From Minisyncoccota bacterium (lineage in GTDB: Bacteria; Patescibacteriota; Minisyncoccia; Phycocordibacterales; UBA6065), in contig DASWWW010000003.1 in the NCBI GenBank assembly GCA_036400935.1, positions 35,716-99,715 on the forward strand: a DNA stretch of 64,000 bases, written 5' to 3'. Below, one piece after another: positions 22,650-48,785 of the stretch. Under the pieces are notes generated by a model. The model was given only the letters and a program-made list of their open reading frames with translations, ran no database searches and was not told where the DNA came from. Position numbers and translations under genes: made by a program. The number at the start of each line of letters is the position of its first letter. Positions within the stretch are counted from its first letter, which is position 1.

Positions 22650-23009
22650 TACTTCTACCTCCAAATGGTTATTAATTCTCATCTAGCGCGAACGAAATAA
22701 AGGCCATTCAGTTGGCTATATTACGTTTCGCTCGAGAGAGCGATTTCTTTTTTAAGGGGGTATGTTGTTTCTTCGACAATAGAACCCCACCGCATGAGTC
22801 TTTCGAGTCAGTCCTACAAGGGACCGATGAGATGGTCTTTTCAAGCATGCAGGTGACTGCAATGATCTATAGATGGTTATTGCAAAACCTACTTTTTTCC
22901 AGGAAAGAAAAAGTAGAACAGGTAAATTAAAGTATTGAATTTCTGTTCGTTGTAAGCGAACAGGGATCATTGAGAGAAATTAGTTTAGTGGTTTTTAAAT
23001 TTCCTAATA

Positions 23010-26300
<3,291 letters not shown>

Positions 26301-26412
26301 TTATTAGGAAATTTATGAATCACACATGCCGTTCGAAAGGACAGCGGTGGTCTAGTTTCCTCAACTTTATTTACTTGAAATTACATATTTCCGAAAAACA
26401 ACATGATTGAGC

Positions 26413-39804: not shown

Positions 39805-40632
39805 CTATTCCCGGATCCTCTCCGAGAAATCGGTGCTGTCCGCGAATTTCTCGGCGCGCGCATTTATATTGAATGTGGCGCGCGCCGCCTCGAACGAAAG
39901 GTCCGTATCGATAAGGCCGAGCTCGTAGGCGTAGCGGTCCGAATAGCCGGGAAGGAGGACTCGCATGTCGAATGGGATGCGGTCGGGAACGAGCTTGTTC
40001 ACATGGCTCACGATATTGGTAGTGCAGGTCGAGGTGAGGGTGTTATAGAATTCCGGCTCGCGCTGGAGCTTGTCGGCGCGCGCGAGCATGTCGAGGAAGA
40101 GGCTTTTGACCTGCTCCTTGCTTGCCTTGATGGGGTAGAGGAAGACCTGGTCGTGCCGGTAGTTTGAGCGCAGCTTTATGACGTCGCGCTCGTCGGCGAT
40201 GACGTACGAGAGCTCGTACTGGCGCAGGAGGCCCTTGACCGGCGAGAACGACTCGCCTTTTTCCTTGCGTATCTCGACCGAGACCGCCACGTGATTGCCG
40301 TCGTCAAAGCCGAAGGTAAGGAGCGTGTGAGCCGCGCCGGGATTCGTCGAGAACGGCTCGACCATGAAATCGACCGTCGCTATGCGATTGAGGTCGAACG
40401 TCTTGTCGTAATAGCCGGGAGTGTAGTCGGTCGTCGTGCGATAGGTGAAATTGCGGATGTCTTTGATCATGACCTTGTCGCCGTCGATTGATATCTTTGG
40501 CTCGACCGCCTGATCGAGGTTCCAGTCGCGGTCGGTGCGGGGCACGACGACGACGCTGAAAATCGCGTAGGCGAGGGCGAGCAGGACGGCGCCAAAGAAG
40601 GCGATTTTAGCGATATATTTGATGATTTTCAT
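39805..40632 (-). CDS. Membrane-anchored hypothetical protein (DUF4105-like).
   Basis: 275 aa with an N-terminal TM helix followed by a globular periplasmic-type domain. Family assignment is from memory only. Confidence 0.5.
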   Translation of the reverse strand: MKIIKYIAKIAFFGAVLLALAYAIFSVVVVPRTDRDWNLDQAVEPKISIDGDKVMIKDIRNFTYRTTTDYTPGYYDKTFDLNRIATVDFMVEPFSTNPGAAHTLLTFGFDDGNHVAVSVEIRKEKGESFSPVKGLLRQYELSYVIADERDVIKLRSNYRHDQVFLYPIKASKEQVKSLFLDMLARADKLQREPEFYNTLTSTCTTNIVSHVNKLVPDRIPFDMRVLLPGYSDRYAYELGLIDTDLSFEAARATFNINARAEKFADSTDFSERIRE

Positions 40633-40757: not shown

Positions 40758-41099
40758 TGTACTTACCTCTGAAAAACTCAGGTTTGAGGAAAAAAGACTT
40801 CGAAAGATGTCCTTTTTCTTTAAGGGGGACGGCAACTGTCGGACTTTGAAATAATTATTGTTATATAAGATTGAGAACGTGCAGAAGAGAGACTGGTTCA
40901 AGTTTCTTTGAATGTACGAGTCCAAATCTTTGAGTATGTTGGATACTGCGATCGGGTCAAAATTCGGACCAAGAGCAGATAATAGGATTGTGGAGGCGGG
41001 AAAGCACCCGTGAATCTCCCAGAGCAAAATATGCAGCAGTTCATACTGTCGTCTATTTTGTTCCGTTCGCTTTGTGCGCTCTTCGGAGCTTCAAAGTTT

Positions 41100-42592
41100 A
41101 TATTAAGAGTTTGATCCTAGCTCAGGATGAACGCTGGCGGCGTGGATAAGTCATGCAAGTCAAGGGGGCCGCAAGGCAACCGGCAGACGAGGTAGTAATA
41201 AGTAGGTACGAAACCAAAAGTCATGAATAGCCCACCGAAAGGTGGGGTAATACATGATAGTCCCTCCGGGGTAAAGATTTATCGCTTTTGGATCGGCCTG
41301 CTCGGTATCAGCTAGTTGGTGAGGTAAAAGCTCACCAAGGCTATGACGCCTAGGGGACCTGAGAGGGTGACCCCCACCGATGGAACTGAGACACGGTCCA
41401 TACACCTACGGGTGGCTGCAGACGAGAATATTCGACAATGGACGAAAGTCTGATCGAGCGACGCCGCGTGCAGGATGAAGTCCTTCGGGACGTAAACTGC
41501 TTTTATTGGGGAGGAAGTTTATTGACGTTACCCATTGAATAAGAGGTTGCTAAACTCGTGCCAGCAGCAGCGGTAATACGAGTGCCTCAAGCGTTATCCG
41601 GAATCATTGGGCGTAAAGGATGTGTAGGTGGCCGCATTAGTCTTTTGTTAAATTTCCCGGCTTAACTGGGAACCTGCAGAAGAAACGGTGCGGCTAGAGG
41701 ATGCAAGGGGTCTGCGGAACTCATAGTGTAGCGGTGAAATGCGTTGATATTATGGGGAACACCAAAAGCGAAGGCAGCAGACTGGGGCACTCCTGACACT
41801 GAAACATGAAAGCGTGGGTAGCGAATGGGATTAGATACCCCAGTAGTCCACGCCCTAAACGATGACAACTAGCTATTTCGAGTATCGACCCTCGGAGTGG
41901 CGTAGCTAACGCGTTAAGTTGTCCGCCTGGGTAGTACGACCGCAAGGTTAAAACTCAAAGGAATAGACGGGGACTCGCACAAGCAGAGGATCATGTGGTT
42001 TAATTCGATGGTAAACGAAGAACCTTACCAGGGTTAGAAATGTAGCTGAAGACAAGCAGAAACGTTTGTCGCCGCAAGGCAGTTACACAGGTGCTGCATG
42101 GCCGTCGTCAGTTCGTGGTTTGAATTGTTCCCTTCAGTGGGGTAACGAACGCAACCCTCATTGCCTGTTACAAGTGTCAGGCGAGACTGCCCAGCTTTTT
42201 GAGCACAAATCGAAAGATTTGCGAGCAAGAAGCTGGGAGGAAGGTGAGGATGACGCCAGGTCAGCATGGCCCTCTGATACCCTGGGCTACACACGTGATA
42301 CAATGGTGCATACAACGCGACGCGACGAGGAAACTCTGAGCAAATCGTAATAAAGTGCACCCTAGTTCGGATAGGAGTCTGCAACTCGACTCCTTGAAGC
42401 TGGATTTGCTAGTAATCTCGGGTCAGCCATACCGAGGTGAATACGTTCTCGAGTCTTGTACTCACCGCCCGTCAACTCAAGGGAGTTGGGAGTGCCCGAA
42501 GTCTGCGCCTGTCGCGGCCTAAGGCAAGCTCAATGACAGGGAGTAAGTCGTAACAAGGCACGGGTAGCGGAAGCTGCTCGTGGATTATTTCA
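41100..42592 (+). rRNA. rrs: 16S ribosomal RNA, unlinked from 23S-5S. Its 3' tail lacks the anti-Shine-Dalgarno CCUCC.
   Basis: The 5' end is agagtttgatcctagctcaggatgaacgctggcggcg. Internal blocks gtgccagcagcagcggtaatac and gtcgtaacaagg are present. The 3' end reads ...ggaagctgctcgtggattatttc, where CACCUCCUU is expected. Confidence 0.9.
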
Positions 42593-42765
42593 AGTGAAAA
42601 CACGCTTCTTATCTACGGATAAGAGCTGATAGAGTCGATCGTTTCAATAACGGGTTCGCGAGACACCTAAATCTCGCTGGAATCAGGGAAGACTGATAGA
42701 AGTCCGGTAGCCTTTATGGAGACCGAGATTAGAACGGGACAAAATAGAAGACAGTATACATGAAA

Positions 42766-44050: not shown

Positions 44051-45427
44051 ATGCTCACCAAGAAATCAAAGATTCTCGTAAAGATCGCCGACAACAAGTC
44101 GGAAGTGGCTTTTATCAAGTCTCTCGTCGACGCGGGCGGCAACGTTGCGTGGCTTAACACCGCGCATCAGGACGAGGAGGCGACGCTCAAGGTGATCAAC
44201 AATATCCGAGCCGTCAGCACCCTTATCCCGATCGCTATCGATACCAAGGGTCCTGAAGTTCGAACAAAGAACGTCGAGGTTCCTTTCGAGGTAAAGAAGG
44301 GCGATCATATTACTTTCACAGGCGACGCGACCCTCAAGGGTAAGAATGTCGTCCTCGTAACGTATCCTAATTTTCATAACGAGGTGCCGGTAGGCGAGAT
44401 TATCCTCTATGATGATGCATTGATCGAGACGATCGTCGTCGAGAAAGTATCAAAGGGCATCAAGTGTATCGTGAACAACCCTGGCCTCATCAAGAACAAG
44501 AAGAGCCTCAACATCCCGAACGTCCACATCCAGCTCCCAGCTCTCTCTGAGAAGGACAAGGGCTTCATCCATTTCTGCGCGAAGCACAATGTCGACTACA
44601 TCACTCACTCGTTCATGCGCAGCCGAAACGATATCGCTGAGATTCGAAAGATCACCGATACGTACCCTGATTACGCTCCAAAGATCATCGCGAAGATTGA
44701 GAACCGAGAAGGATTCGAGAACGTCCGCGACATCCTCAAGCACTGCGACGGACTGATGGTTGCCCGTGGAGATCTCGGTGCTGAAGTCGGCCTCGAGAAC
44801 GTCCCATTCATGCAGAAGAAGATGGTCGAGGCTTGCCTCGAATTGGGCAAGTACTGCATCGTCGCTACCCAGGCTCTCGAGAGCATGATCAAGAATCCTC
44901 GCCCAACTCGAGCAGAGGTTTCTGACGTCGCGAACGCTGTCCTCGAAGGCACCTGCGCCGTATCTATGTCGGGCGAGACCGCTTACGGAGACTATCCGGT
45001 AGAGGCGACTACGACTATGGCAAAGGTCATGAAGGCAACTGAGGACAAGCGATCTGAGCTTCCTCACTTCGCCGCTCAGCCCCTCAAGCCTAACGCTACG
45101 TTCAAGCTCGCTCAGGGCATCTTGAAGAAGGCGGCGGCAGGGAAGGCAAAGGCAATCTTCGCGGTCGGATCTGATATCACTCTCCTCCGCGCATTCTCGG
45201 CATACCGACCGGCGATTACCGTCCTCGCGGCCTGCTCAAAGGAGGCTGACGTCCGAGAGCTCGGCCTCGCATACGCTGTCGACGCTCGACTCGTGGCAGA
45301 GCCTACCGCTCCTCACCTTGCTCAGCTCGAGAAGGACTCATTCAAGCCAAAGGATATGGTTATGGTGGTGGAGAAGGCGGGAAAGGGCTACAAATCGTCC
45401 CTCAAGGCATTCTCAGCAATCAAATAG
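44051..45427 (+). CDS. pyk: Pyruvate kinase.
   Basis: [40 protein letters not shown] and [10 protein letters not shown] are all present. It has the codon usage of highly expressed genes. Confidence 0.9.
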
Positions 45428-45459: not shown

Positions 45460-45490
45460 CAAAAACCGCTTATTTTGGGCGGTTTTTGCA
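45460..45490 (+). terminator. Rho-independent terminator after pyk.
   Basis: caaaaaccgc-ttattttg-ggcggtttttg hairpin. Confidence 0.6.
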
Positions 45491-45517
45491 TGATCAGAAT
45501 GGGCCCGCTTTGAGCGC

Positions 45518-45546
45518 TTGACAAATACATCTAATGGGTGTATAAT
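45518..45546 (+). promoter_or_regulatory. Perfect-consensus sigma-70 promoter (TTGACA-17-TATAAT) of the first unknown gene in the cassette.
   Basis: ttgaca aatacatctaatgggtg tataat. It is followed by the motif gatatgagc and a 13-bp perfect hairpin (45579-45625) in the roughly 160-nt 5'UTR. Confidence 0.5.
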
Positions 45547-45712
45547 ATACTCAGAATAAGCACATTGATATGAGCATGCGGTTGCAGAATCGAGGGCCGG
45601 CAATGGGCCTTGGATTCTGCAACCGACACCAAGTCTTAATTATAGCTTTCGTGATTTACACGAAGGTTCCCTATCCAGGGAAGACAAGCAAGTCGCTGCA
45701 GTGCTTATTCCT

Positions 45713-46360
45713 ATGTCAACTCAGTCCCTCCGTCCCGCGTTCCGCCCCGCCGCTCAGGCTCAAGCCAGCAGCATCAACCTCAACGACAAGGATATGACGA
45801 AGATGCTCCTGAAGTTCAACTTCCGGAGCCAGAGTCATATTCCCAAGGGTATCCCTCAGCAGCCGCGCCGCGCCGACTTCACCGTCGATCAAGCGCATGC
45901 TGCCAAGGCCGCTAACTCGAATCTCGGGGAAGTGGGCCGCGTCCGTGAAGGGCGCGTCGATACCGGTCGTCCGGTGATCCAGAACCTGCCGTTTGTGCAG
46001 GTGCGGGTCCTCCGTGCGAGCTTGCGGAATGCCGGTTGCGGCATCATCGCCGCCCACTGGTATCACAATCCGTCGAAGGACACGTACGTGGTCGTCGTCG
46101 AGGTCGCCCTCGGCAGCAATCCGGATCGTTACAACGATACCCCGCTGTCCGCCGAGGCGATCGAAGGCTTGCGCAACCTCTCCCGCTGCATCTGGCAGTA
46201 CTGCCATGTGTGGGAGAACAAACCGAAGGATACCGGGACGAACGGCATCTTCACGGTGAACTTGGTCGGGCTGCAGCCTTCAAACGCCCGCAGCCAGAAC
46301 ATGCTCGCAGTTCGGGACGGCCACATGCTGGCCATCCCTTTCGTGGAATCCGAAGACTAA
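45713..46360 (+). CDS. Hypothetical protein (unknown-function cassette, gene 1).
   Basis: 215 aa with a Gln/Ala/Ser-rich N-terminus (MSTQSLRPAFRPAAQAQASSINLNDKD) followed by a globular part. It has its own consensus promoter and terminator. Confidence 0.5.
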   Translation: MSTQSLRPAFRPAAQAQASSINLNDKDMTKMLLKFNFRSQSHIPKGIPQQPRRADFTVDQAHAAKAANSNLGEVGRVREGRVDTGRPVIQNLPFVQVRVLRASLRNAGCGIIAAHWYHNPSKDTYVVVVEVALGSNPDRYNDTPLSAEAIEGLRNLSRCIWQYCHVWENKPKDTGTNGIFTVNLVGLQPSNARSQNMLAVRDGHMLAIPFVESED

Positions 46361-46380
46361 ACCTCTCCGGAATCCGCAGG

Positions 46381-46417
46381 AACAGGCGCTTCTCACGAAG
46401 CGCCTGTTATTCTTTTT
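46381..46417 (+). terminator. Rho-independent terminator.
   Basis: aacaggcgcttc-tcac-gaagcgcctgtt hairpin followed by attcttttt. Confidence 0.65.
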
Positions 46418-46425
46418 GGTAAGCA

Positions 46426-46453
46426 TTGACAAATATATTTTATATGCTATAAT
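46426..46453 (+). promoter_or_regulatory. Near-consensus sigma-70 promoter (TTGACA-16-TATAAT) of the second unknown gene in the cassette.
   Basis: ttgaca aatatattttatatgc tataat. It is followed by the same gatatgagc motif, here forming an 11-bp perfect hairpin (46484-46527). Confidence 0.5.
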
Positions 46454-46583
46454 TGTACACAGAACAATTCATTTACATCCTCTCGATATGAGCCTTCAAA
46501 GATTCAATGCTTTGACGGCTCATATCGAGCAATTCCAGTCCTCAAAACTGGAAACAGCCAAAACACAAATAGGAAGTTCCAAA

Positions 46584-47330
46584 ATGAGTACATCGTCTCA
46601 GGCTGCGGCTACCGCAGTTACTAAGGATCAGACGGCCGATACCGGCGCGTCTTTGCAGCAGGGCAAGGGTCAGGGCAAGGGCGACAAGAAGGTGGTTCAG
46701 TTTCCGCCTCAGTCGGGTTCGATCAATCTGATGCGTCAGCCGCTTCAGCGCGATGCTCATCGGCACTACGAGGCCGAGGGTACGCTGTTTCGGGGCTCGC
46801 TTCCGATTCGGTGCTATGTCGAGCGGAGAAAGCTGGGCCTTCTGGCGAGCGCCCTCGGCCGACAGATCACCAAGGAAGAGCTCAGCCTCTTCATCGGGGT
46901 CGAGGCGGTCGGCGCAGAGTGCGCGATCACCAAGAAGCCCTTCCAGCCAGTGTGGTGGGCGGTGATCACGCAGCATCTGATCGATCTGGCCGCGCGTGAC
47001 AAGGAGATCATGCGCGATCGGATCGTAAAGGTCGGTTGCTTCTTCATGTCTCCCGACCCCGAATCGGACCAGGTGCTCACGTTCTCGGGCTATCCGTACT
47101 CGTGGAAGCGCGGGCGGTTTAGCGAAGAGTCGGATCGTCTCGCAGACGAGAATCCACTCATCTTCGCTTACCGCGAGAGCGAGTTCCGCTGGGGATTCAC
47201 TCTCGACCGCGTCAACGAAACGGTTGCAAGTCGCAAGAGCGCTCGCAAGCGGGAGCAGGAGGCGGAGGTCCGGCTGGTGCAGGTGAAGGAGTTCTTTACC
47301 AAGAAGCCCAAAGATAAACGTCGGTCGTAG
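46584..47330 (+). CDS. Hypothetical protein (unknown-function cassette, gene 2).
   Basis: 248 aa with a Ser/Gln/Gly-rich N-terminus (MSTSSQAAATAVTKDQ...GSINLMRQP) and a Lys/Arg-rich C-terminus. Start placed at ATG 46584, after aggaag. The tool's start at 46416 lies inside the promoter. Confidence 0.5.
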   Translation: MSTSSQAAATAVTKDQTADTGASLQQGKGQGKGDKKVVQFPPQSGSINLMRQPLQRDAHRHYEAEGTLFRGSLPIRCYVERRKLGLLASALGRQITKEELSLFIGVEAVGAECAITKKPFQPVWWAVITQHLIDLAARDKEIMRDRIVKVGCFFMSPDPESDQVLTFSGYPYSWKRGRFSEESDRLADENPLIFAYRESEFRWGFTLDRVNETVASRKSARKREQEAEVRLVQVKEFFTKKPKDKRRS

Positions 47331-47342
47331 CCCTTAAGGGGC

Positions 47343-47392
47343 AAAAGGGGGTGTCATGCAAGTGACACTCCCTTAAAGCTTTTTATATATCT
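47343..47392 (+). terminator. Imperfect hairpin between the convergent genes (cassette gene 2 and truD).
   Basis: ggggtgtcatgcaagtgacactccc followed by ttaaagcttttt. Confidence 0.35.
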
Positions 47393-48785
47393 ACGCCGCC
47401 TCGCCGCCGTCCGCCCTCACTTCCAATTTTCTGAATATATCAATAGTTTGGGCGCGCGCCGGATTCTCCGAGACTGCCGATCCGTCGATCCTTTCTTTGG
47501 ACATGCCTTCGGGCAGGGCGTCGCCGACGATCGTGATGTGGTGCGAGAGGAACGTCGTCGCGTAGGCTCCCTTTGGCAGGCTGAACGATACGAACGATCC
47601 GTGCTCGGAATTGCGCACCTCTATGTTCCGCGCCGTCTCGATCGTCTTTACAGTCCTATGGGCGAGTCGGATAAAGGGTAGCGGCTTGAGGTTCTGGAAT
47701 GGCGGCGGAAACATGCCGAGGGCGGTGAGTTCCTTTCTGTACGCCTCGATATCGGCCCTGTCGAACGAGAATATGAAAGGCAGGACCGTCGGCGGGCGCA
47801 TGTCCTTCTGGACGAAGCTCGATATCTTCTCGTTGAAGAGCAGGGAGGCCAGGCCGTAGAGCCAGAGCTGCACCTGATCGGGAATGAGGTTGAGCGCTCC
47901 TGTAAAATCCTTTGGGTTCGAGATGAGCCGGTCGAGCATCGGCGCCTCGCAATGCATGATGTTGAGGATAGGATCAAAGACCTCCTTTACCTCTGCCCAG
48001 GTCTTTTTCGTCTTGGCCTCGTTGCGCAGCTGGGATATGAAAGGAAGCTCTCGCGGCTGCACGTCGAACATGACGCTCCGGACGGCCGCCTCGTAATTGC
48101 CGCGAAGGAGCTCGAATCCCCAGAGGTAGTTGATGAGGCGCGGGCTGCCGAATCGCTGCATGTAGAAATAGTTGTAGAAATCCTCGCTCGGCTTGTCGGC
48201 GAGGGCGATCGTCTCGCCCGGATTCATGCGCAGGAATATGCCGAAGCGGTTTCCGGACAGGTTGGTCATGCTTATGACTCCTTTGCCTCGAGCGACATCC
48301 TTGAGGAAATAGAAGGGCGACGATACGTTCCTCAGCGCGCTCTCGTCGGCGCCGCGCAGCGATATGCGCTGCGACGTCACCGCGTGCTTGTCCTTGATTC
48401 CCGCATAGCCGATCGATTTTTCAGGGATGTTGAGCTGCTTCGCCAGATCCTTCACCACTTCGAGGGTGGAGAGGCTGCATTTTACGAGCGTGGCATAGAT
48501 CGTGTCGCCCTCGCCGTCGATAGCGGAGTCTTTTGCGAGCACGTTCTCATGGTCGATGGTAAGCACTTTGCCCGATAGGTCGATTTCCTCGACGATGAAG
48601 TCCTCGGCATAGAGCTTCATGAAGCCCTGAGGCAGCAACTCCTTGCCGGGAATGAATATGCCAAAGCGGCTGAGGTCCTGAGCGCTCTCGACAAACGAGG
48701 GCTTGGTGAAAAGCTCGGGATGCTCGGCGAGTGCCTTCTTTACGACGGGGTGGTTGTGGCTGATCATTTGCCTGTAATTATACAC
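47391..48785 (-). CDS. truD: tRNA pseudouridine synthase TruD/Pus7 family.
   Basis: 464 aa. Catalytic motif GYAGIKDKHAVTSQ (TruD GxKD) and the TruD-like core RFGSPRLINYLWGFELL. Confidence 0.7.
   Translation of the reverse strand: MYNYRQMISHNHPVVKKALAEHPELFTKPSFVESAQDLSRFGIFIPGKELLPQGFMKLYAEDFIVEEIDLSGKVLTIDHENVLAKDSAIDGEGDTIYATLVKCSLSTLEVVKDLAKQLNIPEKSIGYAGIKDKHAVTSQRISLRGADESALRNVSSPFYFLKDVARGKGVISMTNLSGNRFGIFLRMNPGETIALADKPSEDFYNYFYMQRFGSPRLINYLWGFELLRGNYEAAVRSVMFDVQPRELPFISQLRNEAKTKKTWAEVKEVFDPILNIMHCEAPMLDRLISNPKDFTGALNLIPDQVQLWLYGLASLLFNEKISSFVQKDMRPPTVLPFIFSFDRADIEAYRKELTALGMFPPPFQNLKPLPFIRLAHRTVKTIETARNIEVRNSEHGSFVSFSLPKGAYATTFLSHHITIVGDALPEGMSKERIDGSAVSENPARAQTIDIFRKLEVRADGGEAA

Follow-up and report, generated by a model that had tools for sequence, protein, structure and literature searches.

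We wanted to establish what two neighbouring genes of a Patescibacteria genome are and how they are expressed. The genes, here called A and B, lie between pyk and truD in the window, that is, in the whole 64-kb stretch of DNA that we analysed. A preliminary description had presented them as a co-regulated two-gene cassette, with effectors, defence components or a toxin-antitoxin-like pair as candidate roles. The question is therefore whether A and B are one module or two separate units, and what their long leaders may do.

Promoters and terminators of the two genes

Both ORFs agreed in their coordinates with the preliminary description. Gene A (45713-46360, + strand) encodes 215 aa starting with MSTQS, and gene B (46584-47330, + strand) encodes 248 aa starting with MSTSS. 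Upstream of A lies the gene for pyruvate kinase (pyk; PF00224, E 2e-97). Downstream of B, in convergent orientation, lies truD, which encodes tRNA pseudouridine synthase D (47391-48785, - strand, stop codon 47391-47393; PF01142, E 1.5e-54).

The promoter of gene A (45518-45546, + strand) consists of TTGACA at 45518-45523, a 17-nt spacer and TATAAT at 45541-45546. That of gene B (46426-46453, + strand) consists of TTGACA at 46426-46431, a 16-nt spacer and a TG-extended TATAAT at 46448-46453. They had been described as near-perfect sigma-70 promoters; both scored 12/12, which makes them perfect. Exact matches to TTGACA-N16-18-TATAAT on either strand of the window were limited to these two, in agreement with the earlier remark that consensus promoters are rare elsewhere. 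The number of perfect promoters expected from shuffled sequences was 0.01 per window, and none of 100 shuffles reached two.

We observed a similar design in other genomes. At orthologous A loci the promoter scored 10-12/12 and its -10 box ended 166-169 nt before the ATG. A TTGAC(A/T) -35 box, a 16-18 nt spacer and a -10 box were present in all 20 A loci, and the TG extension in 18 of them. Across 17 A loci (191 kb), the 300 nt upstream of A contained 7 perfect promoters and 3 that scored 11/12, while only 4 perfect ones occurred elsewhere, 2 of them before B. Perfect promoters precede B also in loci L007 (5628-5655) and L027 (957-985). We took promoter strength from the match to the consensus and transcription starts from the position of the -10 box. 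Judged in this way, genes of the A family have some of the strongest promoters in their genomes. The strong expression proposed earlier is likely for both genes, since the window has no other such promoter and the trait spans the whole A family.

Transcription of each gene also appears to be bounded. An intrinsic terminator (AAAAACCGC...GCGGTTTTT, 45461-45490, + strand), read from the sequence, follows pyk and is predicted to shield gene A from upstream transcription; counterpart hairpins follow pyk in loci L001 and L007. Gene A ends in an intrinsic terminator of its own (46381-46418, + strand; 12-bp stem followed by a T-run). The strong terminators that the preliminary description had assigned to the two genes were found at 46381-46408 and 47345-47374. 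The latter is a hairpin with a 13-bp stem between the stop codons of B and convergent truD, and it probably terminates in both directions.

Structured leaders of A and B

The 3' end of the 16S rRNA lacks CCUCC, which means that there is no anti-Shine-Dalgarno sequence. Such a loss was reported for part of Parcubacteria (PMC9297842). In the window, a -10-like box precedes the ATG of many genes by 6-10 nt, and the genome looks largely leaderless. With the anti-Shine-Dalgarno sequence absent and most genes apparently leaderless, the long leaders of A and B are exceptions.

The leader of gene A is approximately 160 nt long (45553-45712, + strand, with the start placed from the -10 box). Its minimum free energy was -72.5 kcal/mol (z = -7.2), which was matched by none of 200 shuffled sequences. 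The 13-bp perfect stem described earlier at 45579-45625 (+ strand) was confirmed as the base of a longer helix, P1, which has 19 pairs in total: 13 perfect pairs, a G-G mismatch and about 6 more pairs, closed by a loop of 6-7 nt. It is followed by helices P2 (45645-45667, + strand) and P3 (45668-45681, + strand), the latter being retained. We compared four sequences, namely those of the window, L001, L007 and L027. P1 was nearly invariant, with 16 of its 19 pairs unchanged. The changes were confined to three apical pairs, two of them compensatory, and one G-U pair was invariant. The A proteins encoded downstream were just 38-59% identical. In P2, 9 of 10 pairs showed changes on both sides. Over the whole leader there were 14 such pairs and 93.5% of cells were paired; 0 of 500 shuffles equalled the observed values, and pairing was at most 52% when the partners were slid. 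A further long-range helix closing leader A was dropped, as it was not conserved.

We used the covariance model R1 to look for this leader elsewhere. It identified the same leader in L001, L007 and the independent L027 (77 bits, E about 1e-19). When it was run on all distant A loci, the window-type leader proved to be limited to a close clade, and more distant A orthologues carry unrelated hairpins or none. An uninterrupted leader stem of at least 14 bp was present in 13 of 20 A loci; in A loci other than that of the window, such stems measure 14-24 bp. Five A loci have a short leader with no hairpin, and the hairpin is therefore not essential to the A family.

The leader of gene B (46460-46583, + strand, start likewise placed from the -10 box) is approximately 124 nt long, with a minimum free energy of -44.6 kcal/mol (z = -7.8; 0 of 200 shuffles matched). 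Its main hairpin was real as proposed but larger: the 11 bp described at 46484-46527 form the core of a 13-bp perfect stem at 46482-46529 (+ strand), which extends to about 20 pairs. A second hairpin lies at 46533-46553 (+ strand). In the three available sequences (window, L007, L027), 6 of the 20 pairs of the main hairpin were compensatory and the loop GAUUYRAUGC was retained. The RNA structures of both leaders are thus supported by compensatory changes in independent sequences, and the G-U pairs in both hairpins assign the structure to the sense RNA. RNA-level control, as suggested earlier, is plausible given the conserved leaders and covarying helices. The contrast between near-invariant P1 and freely covarying P2 exceeds what a purely structural stabiliser would explain and points to sequence-specific recognition by a factor.

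Rfam 15 gave nothing at gathering threshold for either leader; the best sub-threshold matches, to unrelated models of sRNAs and miRNAs, fell far short of the cut-offs. In viral contigs, both hairpin sequences had only chance 16-mer matches inside unrelated coding DNA. The word (T/C)GATATGAGC, said to be common to the two leaders, is indeed present at 45566-45575 and 46484-46493, but it is not conserved. It is missing from three orthologous A leaders, in B it is the 5' arm of the hairpin, and chance alone gave a common 9-mer in 4-6% of trials. The occurrence of GATATGAGC in both leaders is probably due to chance.

The two proteins and their families

Protein A is basic (pI 9.5) and soluble, with an acidic C-terminus. 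It carries the motif GRVREGRVDTG at residues 75-85, which in the family corresponds to a loop, GRxRxGRVDTG, that is rich in Arg and hardly varies (in L007, RVDTG is replaced by RFDNG). The family is unannotated, belongs to Patescibacteria and comprises at least 287 clusters at 50% identity. Convergent truD lies directly downstream of A in 16 of the 17 distinct loci with enough flank. The outer neighbours of this A-truD unit vary between loci, and housekeeping genes surround it. A had no match in Pfam, NCBIfam, PHROGs or PADLOC. Searches of the PDB and of a library of viral protein structures gave no fold match, and Pfam found no real domain or fusion partner in 99 members of the family and 10 unusually long ones. 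The structure model was built from 7 sequences, and the most conserved motif falls in a low-confidence loop. The RVDTG motif and the linkage to truD had suggested a pseudouridine synthase; however, A shows no sequence or fold similarity to one, and profile comparison ruled out a relationship to TruD. In a limited literature search we found no description of the A family, its linkage to truD or its promoter-leader design, and nothing specific to the A or B families among reports on highly expressed Patescibacteria genes.

Protein B, with a pI of 9.6, is also basic; its N-terminus is disordered and its C-terminal tail basic. Alignment of homologues gave a conserved core, ALGRQIT...FQPVWW...SGxPxxW. 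The family is rare and patchy, with only four clusters among 5.8 billion proteins, and it had no match in Pfam, NCBIfam, PHROGs or PADLOC apart from a meaningless NCBIfam match to a sigma factor (E 0.018; 14.5 bits against a cut-off of 185 bits). An AF2 model from 2 sequences reached a pLDDT of 35, and PDB profile searches with either protein found nothing. Neither A nor B has a signal peptide or membrane segment.

A and B do not form a pair. They showed no BLASTP similarity, and their profile-profile probability was 0.3%. The MST start and the SINL motif that the preliminary description had listed are present in both, but SINL is not retained in B homologues and the two proteins are not homologous. 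In L001, L004, L028 and the more distant loci A is present and B is missing, while L018/L019 have B but neither A nor truD. The idea of a mobile or variable two-gene module, be it a toxin-antitoxin, defence or effector pair, would fit the rare and patchy B, the fast evolution of A, and an A tree that is locally at odds with the TruD and pyruvate kinase trees (between the window and L001, A is 55% and TruD 48% identical; between the window and L007, 38% and 71%). We nevertheless give this reading almost no credence. The genes have separate promoters and terminators, and each is found without the other. A scan of viral contigs brought up no relatives of A. GC3 was ordinary (0.79 for A and 0.75 for B, against 0.68-0.78 for the neighbours), with no integrase or repeats flanking the region. 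A is not variably present but syntenic, next to truD across many Patescibacteria lineages, and B, though patchy, occupies the same housekeeping slot as A. A toxin-antitoxin pair was rejected on the basis that there is no single operon, no co-occurrence and no toxin or antitoxin domain in Pfam, NCBIfam or PADLOC; anti-phage defence was rejected for want of a PADLOC family and with A fixed beside truD. The cassette was a tempting but wrong label, which can be removed. The outcome that the preliminary description would have taken as a refutation did not occur: there was no homology to housekeeping proteins, and the promoter-leader design recurs at orthologous loci in other genomes.

Proposed explanation and known systems

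We lean towards the reading that A and B are independent single-gene, high-output units for lineage-specific abundant proteins, with post-transcriptional control through their leaders. Each unit combines a sigma-70 consensus promoter, a long structured leader that is conserved, a short gene for a basic soluble protein and an intrinsic terminator. A followed by convergent truD is the conserved genomic unit of a Patescibacteria-wide family, and B, rare and unrelated, has come to occupy that intergenic slot. The analysis shows these promoters and terminators, the conserved RNA structure, the size of the family, the synteny and the independence of A and B; the output of the genes and the action of the leaders are inferred from them. 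Both genes would be transcribed at very high rates. The leader hairpins of about 20 bp may then act on the sense RNA after transcription and set mRNA lifetime, processing (their size suits RNase III) or access to the start codon, which would carry weight in an organism with mostly leaderless mRNAs and no anti-Shine-Dalgarno sequence. The products would be abundant and, judging from their charge, probably bind nucleic acids. The divergence of A, which is faster than that of TruD in most close pairs (e.g. 38% vs 71%), is not what one would usually expect of a protein expressed at very high levels and counts against high output. The near-invariance of P1 and the five A loci with short, hairpin-free leaders also weigh against the preferred reading.

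The leaders could also serve autogenous feedback, in which A, and likewise B, binds its own leader hairpin and represses translation or triggers decay, as is known for ribosomal-protein leaders, thrS and pnp. Both proteins are basic, A has its Arg-rich loop, P1 is kept in sequence as well as structure, and A is genetically tied to the gene of an RNA-modifying enzyme. However, P1 is identical in L007, where protein A is only 38% identical and has the altered RFDNG, and in the distant A orthologues the hairpins are unrelated or missing. No leader-like sequence was found in the 16S, 23S and 5S genes or in the rest of the window. Feedback of this kind seems rather doubtful to us. Another RNA carrying a similar hairpin may be the main target in such a scheme. 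Leaders that act as sensors, as a cspA-like thermosensor, a riboswitch or a regulatory upstream ORF, would make expression conditional and not constitutive. Leader A is close to the cspA 5' UTR in length, the design is multi-helical, two of three B leaders have a predicted pairing between their 5' end and the start codon, and all four A leaders retain an AUG at the 5' base of P1, as do all three B leaders within the 5' arm of their hairpin. We consider sensing unlikely: the leaders match no Rfam family, what is conserved is a helix paired throughout, with no internal loop or junction for a ligand pocket, and orthologues differ in leader type. Neither L027 nor the A leaders show start-codon pairing, and sequestration in leader B was dropped as not conserved; regulatory upstream ORFs were dropped as well, since neither their length nor their frame is conserved.

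Control could instead take place on DNA, with the inverted repeats as repressor operators and the RNA hairpin as a by-product. This would agree with the invariance, not covariation, of both P1 arms and with repeats at approximately 25-75 nt from the predicted transcription start. Yet one G-U pair of P1 never varies and P1 also has a G-G mismatch, G-C to G-U changes in both hairpins keep RNA pairing and not DNA symmetry, and compensatory changes maintain pairing in apical P1, P2 and the B hairpin. There is no linked regulator gene, and we know of no operators with arms of 19-20 bp whose centres lie about 30 bp apart, which also counts against DNA-level control. We regard it as very unlikely. 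We hold it quite unlikely, too, that A is an abundant, Patescibacteria-specific RNA-associated protein, kept tail-to-tail with truD across the whole radiation by a joint role in tRNA, rRNA or translation, with the leader hairpin as the site of a conserved post-transcriptional regulator. One possibility there is that A offsets features of the ribosome or of initiation lost in Parcubacteria without an anti-Shine-Dalgarno sequence. If such a reading were true, the locus would offer an entry to the expression of leadered mRNAs without Shine-Dalgarno pairing.

The analysis also gives two candidate cis-acting RNA motifs absent from Rfam, from a mostly leaderless lineage without an anti-Shine-Dalgarno sequence. 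They bear on how structured leaders of 120-160 nt are translated without Shine-Dalgarno pairing. Much of bacterial diversity falls within Patescibacteria, and many of their genes have no assigned function. With its many clusters, no fold relative, a strong promoter and linkage to truD, A is well worth studying for its structure and function.

Among known systems, the cspA-type genes of E. coli have a strong promoter, a structured 5' UTR of approximately 159 nt, a single gene and its own terminator. The A and B units have the same transcription-unit design and similar leader lengths, several unlinked genes share the design, and the expected product is small and abundant and may bind nucleic acids. 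In contrast to cspA, A and B have no cold-shock domain (no Pfam match), their leaders share no cold-box sequence, and the host has no Shine-Dalgarno system. Hairpins of the 5' UTR also set the fate of mRNAs in the ompA-type 5' stabiliser and in the pnp and rnc leaders cleaved by RNase III. As in these, a stable hairpin lies near the promoter of an mRNA predicted to be strongly expressed, and the stems of approximately 19-24 bp (19 pairs in P1, 20 in the B hairpin) resemble RNase III substrates in size. Unlike the ompA type, the A and B hairpins start approximately 22-26 nt after the predicted transcription start and not at the 5' end, and the sequence invariance of P1 goes beyond a stabiliser's need. 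The leaders of rpsO, rplT and similar genes are autoregulatory ribosomal-protein leaders, and A and B resemble them as genes of basic proteins with their own conserved structured leaders. They differ in that A and B match no ribosomal family in Pfam or NCBIfam and A evolves much faster than ribosomal proteins; at the level of sequence, no match to the 16S, 23S and 5S genes of the window was detected. A also resembles CPR-specific families, as it is found solely in Patescibacteria MAGs as far as sampled.

Transcription signals of genes A and B

The window comes from a genome of Patescibacteria (CPR). The two open reading frames named in the preliminary description were present as described, gene A at 45713-46360 (215 aa) and gene B at 46584-47330 (248 aa). 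They are preceded by the pyruvate kinase gene pyk (44051-45427, PF00224), whose terminator was read from the sequence at 45461-45490, and followed by truD (47391-48785, PF01142), which is convergent with both. The database entries for the identical proteins are VGE35_03245 and VGE35_03250, both hypothetical, from a MAG named "Candidatus Paceibacterota bacterium". The base composition of both genes was normal for the genome (GC3 of 0.79 and 0.75 for A and B, 0.68-0.78 in the neighbours).

Each gene had its own set of signals. Promoter A (45518-45546, spacer of 17 nt) and promoter B (46426-46453, spacer of 16 nt, TG extension) both match TTGACA/TATAAT at 12 of 12 positions. Both strands of the 64-kb window were scanned, and no further exact promoter was found; shuffled sequences gave an expectation of 0.01, and two or more occurred in 0 of 100 shuffles. 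The predicted leaders of A and B contain hairpins at 45579-45625 (13 perfect pairs, 19 in total) and 46482-46529 (13 perfect pairs, approximately 20 in total), and the genes end in terminators at 46381-46408 and 47345-47374, respectively. In all these observations the preliminary description was confirmed. Its interpretation was right only in part.

The two genes had been regarded as a two-gene cassette. The shared word GATATGAGC, taken for a common element, is a 9-mer that arose by chance in 4-6% of trials and was missing from the three orthologous A leaders; within leader B it forms one arm of the hairpin. Similar N-termini and a SINL motif occur in both proteins but are no sign of homology. 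BLASTP gave no alignment between the proteins, the profile-profile probability was 0.3%, and SINL was not retained in B homologues. Nor did related loci always keep the genes together. The gene order was pyk, A, truD with B absent in L001, L002 and L003, while L004 and more distant loci carried A and truD without B or pyk. Both A and B were found in L007 and L027, and in L018 and L019 a B homologue followed pyk with neither A nor truD at the site. Since A and B occur alone and have separate promoters and terminators, an operon, a toxin-antitoxin pair and an obligate two-component system are excluded. In the slot with B but without A and truD, a 126-aa open reading frame (L018:2919-3299, also L019:3812-4192) with its own promoter-like TTGACA at approximately 2874 precedes a PALP gene. 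The slot 3' of pyk appears to gather small genes with their own promoters.

We further analyzed the promoter and leader in other loci. Seventeen A loci, 191 kb in all, were scanned on both strands. The 300 nt 5' of A held a total of 7 perfect promoters and 3 matching at 11 of 12 positions; the remainder of these loci had only 4 perfect ones, two of which precede B (in the window and L007). All of 20 A loci had TTGAC(A/T), a spacer of 16-18 nt and a -10 box, with the TG extension in 18. The longest uninterrupted leader stem measured 14-24 bp in 13 of the 20, and leaders were short and hairpin-less in 5. The B homologues of L007, L027, L018 and L020 also had a strong promoter and a leader hairpin. 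As read from these sequences, the promoter-leader architecture is a trait of the A family. The two remaining perfect promoters drive small single-gene units (L007:728-1190 and L012:1731-2170), each with a leader of approximately 85 nt and its own terminator. Their products are a 102-aa hydrophobic protein (L007:841-1149) and a charged protein of approximately 90 aa (L012:1845-2115). Such units may belong to a broader class of small genes with strong promoters and leaders.

The protein families and the linkage of A to truD

Neither protein matched any entry of Pfam, NCBIfam, PHROGs or PADLOC. A first search with protein A gave six homologues, and a profile search over 1.84 billion cluster representatives then identified 287 clusters at E<=1e-3, 78 of them <1e-30, nearly all of approximately 200 aa. 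Named members were each called "hypothetical protein" and came from Parcubacteria or Paceibacterota MAGs. We found no real Pfam domain in 99 members scanned singly, no fused domain in longer members, no hydrophobic segment in the family and no PDB sequence matching the profile. The AF2 model of A, based on 7 sequences, was alpha/beta with about eight strands (pLDDT 75, pTM 0.74). Members are basic, with a median pI of 8.8 (9.5 in the window), and frequently have an acidic tail at the C-terminus. Its most conserved element is GRxRxGRVDTG, in which R78, D83, T84 and G85 were present in 94-97% of members, and which the model placed in a low-confidence loop. In L010 the A homologue (L010:4004-4573) begins at GRVREGRVDTG, the N-terminal third seen in other members being absent; truncation, a frameshift or a pseudogene may explain this.

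Protein B was rare, with four clusters in 5.8 billion proteins, profile search included. B too is a basic protein (pI 9.6); its disordered N-terminus precedes a conserved core, and the C-terminal tail is basic. Its AF2 model was unusable (pLDDT 35), and no PDB relative was found.

The A loci were collected from genomes and metagenomes by A homology alone, and the MAGs were labelled Paceibacterota, Taylorbacteria, Buchananbacteria, Staskawiczbacteria and others. Among 17 distinct loci with sufficient flanking sequence, 16 had truD directly 3' of A in convergent orientation (the window, where B lies between, was counted), and the identity of TruD across the loci fell to 30%. The exception was L026, with truD approximately 2.3 kb upstream. 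Across the loci sampled, the linkage of the A family to truD is nearly universal. The gap between A and truD was 46-85 nt and contained a single hairpin terminator. The 5' neighbours of A varied (pyk, ClpB, a pectate-lyase-like protein, an IS200-type transposase, unknown genes), and so did the genes past truD (PALP enzyme, trypsin-like protease, YceG, DNA polymerase III delta subunit, CYTH protein, RelA/SpoT, S1 protein, PNP_UDP). In a Buchananbacteria MAG an IS200-type (Y1) transposase gene (L013:2928-3458) lies directly 5' of the A promoter, and the A-truD pair is undamaged. The conserved motif and the truD linkage prompted the idea that A is a relative of pseudouridine synthases, which we rejected: against an alignment of 16 TruD sequences the A profile reached a probability of 0.2%, and there were no synthases among the fold matches of A.

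Protein A was less conserved than TruD in most close pairs (38% and 71% for the window and L007; 52% and 69% for L023 and L024). The window and L001 presented the reverse case (55% and 48%), and pairwise identities of the two proteins were weakly correlated (r = 0.39). The A tree was at odds with the genome tree. Window A (45713-46360) was 55% identical to that of L001 (L001:6001-6633) and 38% to that of L007 (L007:4925-5569), while L007 is the closer genome, as judged from pyruvate kinase (62% to L001, 88% to L007) and TruD (48%, 71%). Either an exchange of A alleles at one fixed locus or faster evolution of A in the L007 lineage may account for this.

Leader RNAs and the translation setting

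The predicted folds of the leaders were stable (-72.5 kcal/mol, z = -7.2 for A; -44.6 kcal/mol, z = -7.8 for B) and were equalled by 0 of 200 shuffles in both cases. The window type of leader A was also found in L001, L007 and L027. With three of the four leaders as input, a covariance model recovered the fourth at 77 bits (E ~1e-19) and gave no further match in other A loci. In the four-sequence alignment 93.5% of cells were paired and 14 pairs were altered on both sides, values reached in 0 of 500 shuffles; shifted partners gave at most 52% pairing. In helix P1, 16 of 19 pairs were invariant, with variation confined to apical pairs, and a G-G mismatch and a G-U pair were invariant too. By contrast, helix P2 had compensatory changes in 9 of 10 pairs. 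A stretch of approximately 53 nt, comprising P1 and flanking sequence, did not differ among the window, L001 and L007, and the A coding sequence behind them was 52-61% identical as DNA and 38-55% as protein. The leader B hairpin, compared in three sequences, had 20 pairs, 6 of them compensatory, and a conserved loop. No Rfam match was obtained for either leader, and nothing resembling them was found elsewhere in the window, rRNA genes included.

An upstream AUG was kept in 7 of 7 leaders; its reading frame and length were not. It stands (as GCAUG) just 5' of P1 in 4 of 4 A leaders (window 45570-45578) and in the 5' arm of the hairpin in 3 of 3 B leaders. The upstream AUG of window B (46488-46490) is in frame with B, and the upstream reading frames of L007 and L027 end after 9 and 17 codons.

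In the window, as usual in CPR genomes, the rRNA genes are unlinked: approximately 15 kb lie between the 16S rRNA gene and the 23S rRNA gene, which contains a group I intron (23002-26311, 25755-26010; 16S at 41099-42595). The 3' tail of 16S rRNA (42575-42595) is GGATTATTTCAAG, without the CCUCC anti-Shine-Dalgarno core, a loss reported in about half of Parcubacteria (PMC9297842). Shine-Dalgarno sequences were scarce among window genes and gene A had none. Approximately one third of the genes had a -10-like TANNNT box 4-12 nt 5' of the ATG (e.g. 6774(-), 10411, 39805-40632(-), 57432(-)), which suggests leaderless mRNAs. Given this pattern, leaders of 124-160 nt would be exceptions in the genome.

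Possible roles of the two units

In the best-supported reading, A and B each form an independent high-output unit of a single gene, whose product would be an abundant, basic, lineage-specific protein and whose mRNA would bear functional 5' structures. The data show the promoters, terminators, RNA structures and their conservation, the family size, the synteny and the independence of the two genes; we infer high expression, action of the hairpins after transcription and binding of nucleic acids by the proteins. A DNA operator is unlikely in view of the G-U pairs and the covariation. In both leaders, G-U pairs and one-sided changes from G-C to G-U assign the structures to the sense RNA and speak against a DNA palindrome. 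A riboswitch is likewise unlikely: conservation falls on an unbroken helix, and orthologues differ in leader type. A toxin-antitoxin, defence or effector role, suggested in the preliminary description, found no support, and a scan of viral contigs gave no relatives of A.

Hairpins of the size of RNase III substrates recur in the family with unrelated sequences, which speaks for a general function in the processing or stability of mRNA. Such a role does not explain the invariant sequence of P1 in the close clade, which points to a specific conserved partner. Autogenous binding of protein A to P1 is plausible, but the case is weakened by an unchanged P1 where the protein, its conserved loop included, has diverged.

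In summary, the analysis yields a large unannotated protein family of Patescibacteria whose expression architecture is striking and whose linkage to truD, nearly universal in the loci sampled, is unexplained, as well as two candidate cis-acting RNA motifs. A link of A to tRNA or translation biology, if true, would raise the significance of the family. The nearest working analogies for the two units are cspA-type genes, stabilisers in the 5' UTR together with RNase III-cleaved leaders, and the autoregulatory leaders of ribosomal proteins; the features compared did not place A and B in any of these.
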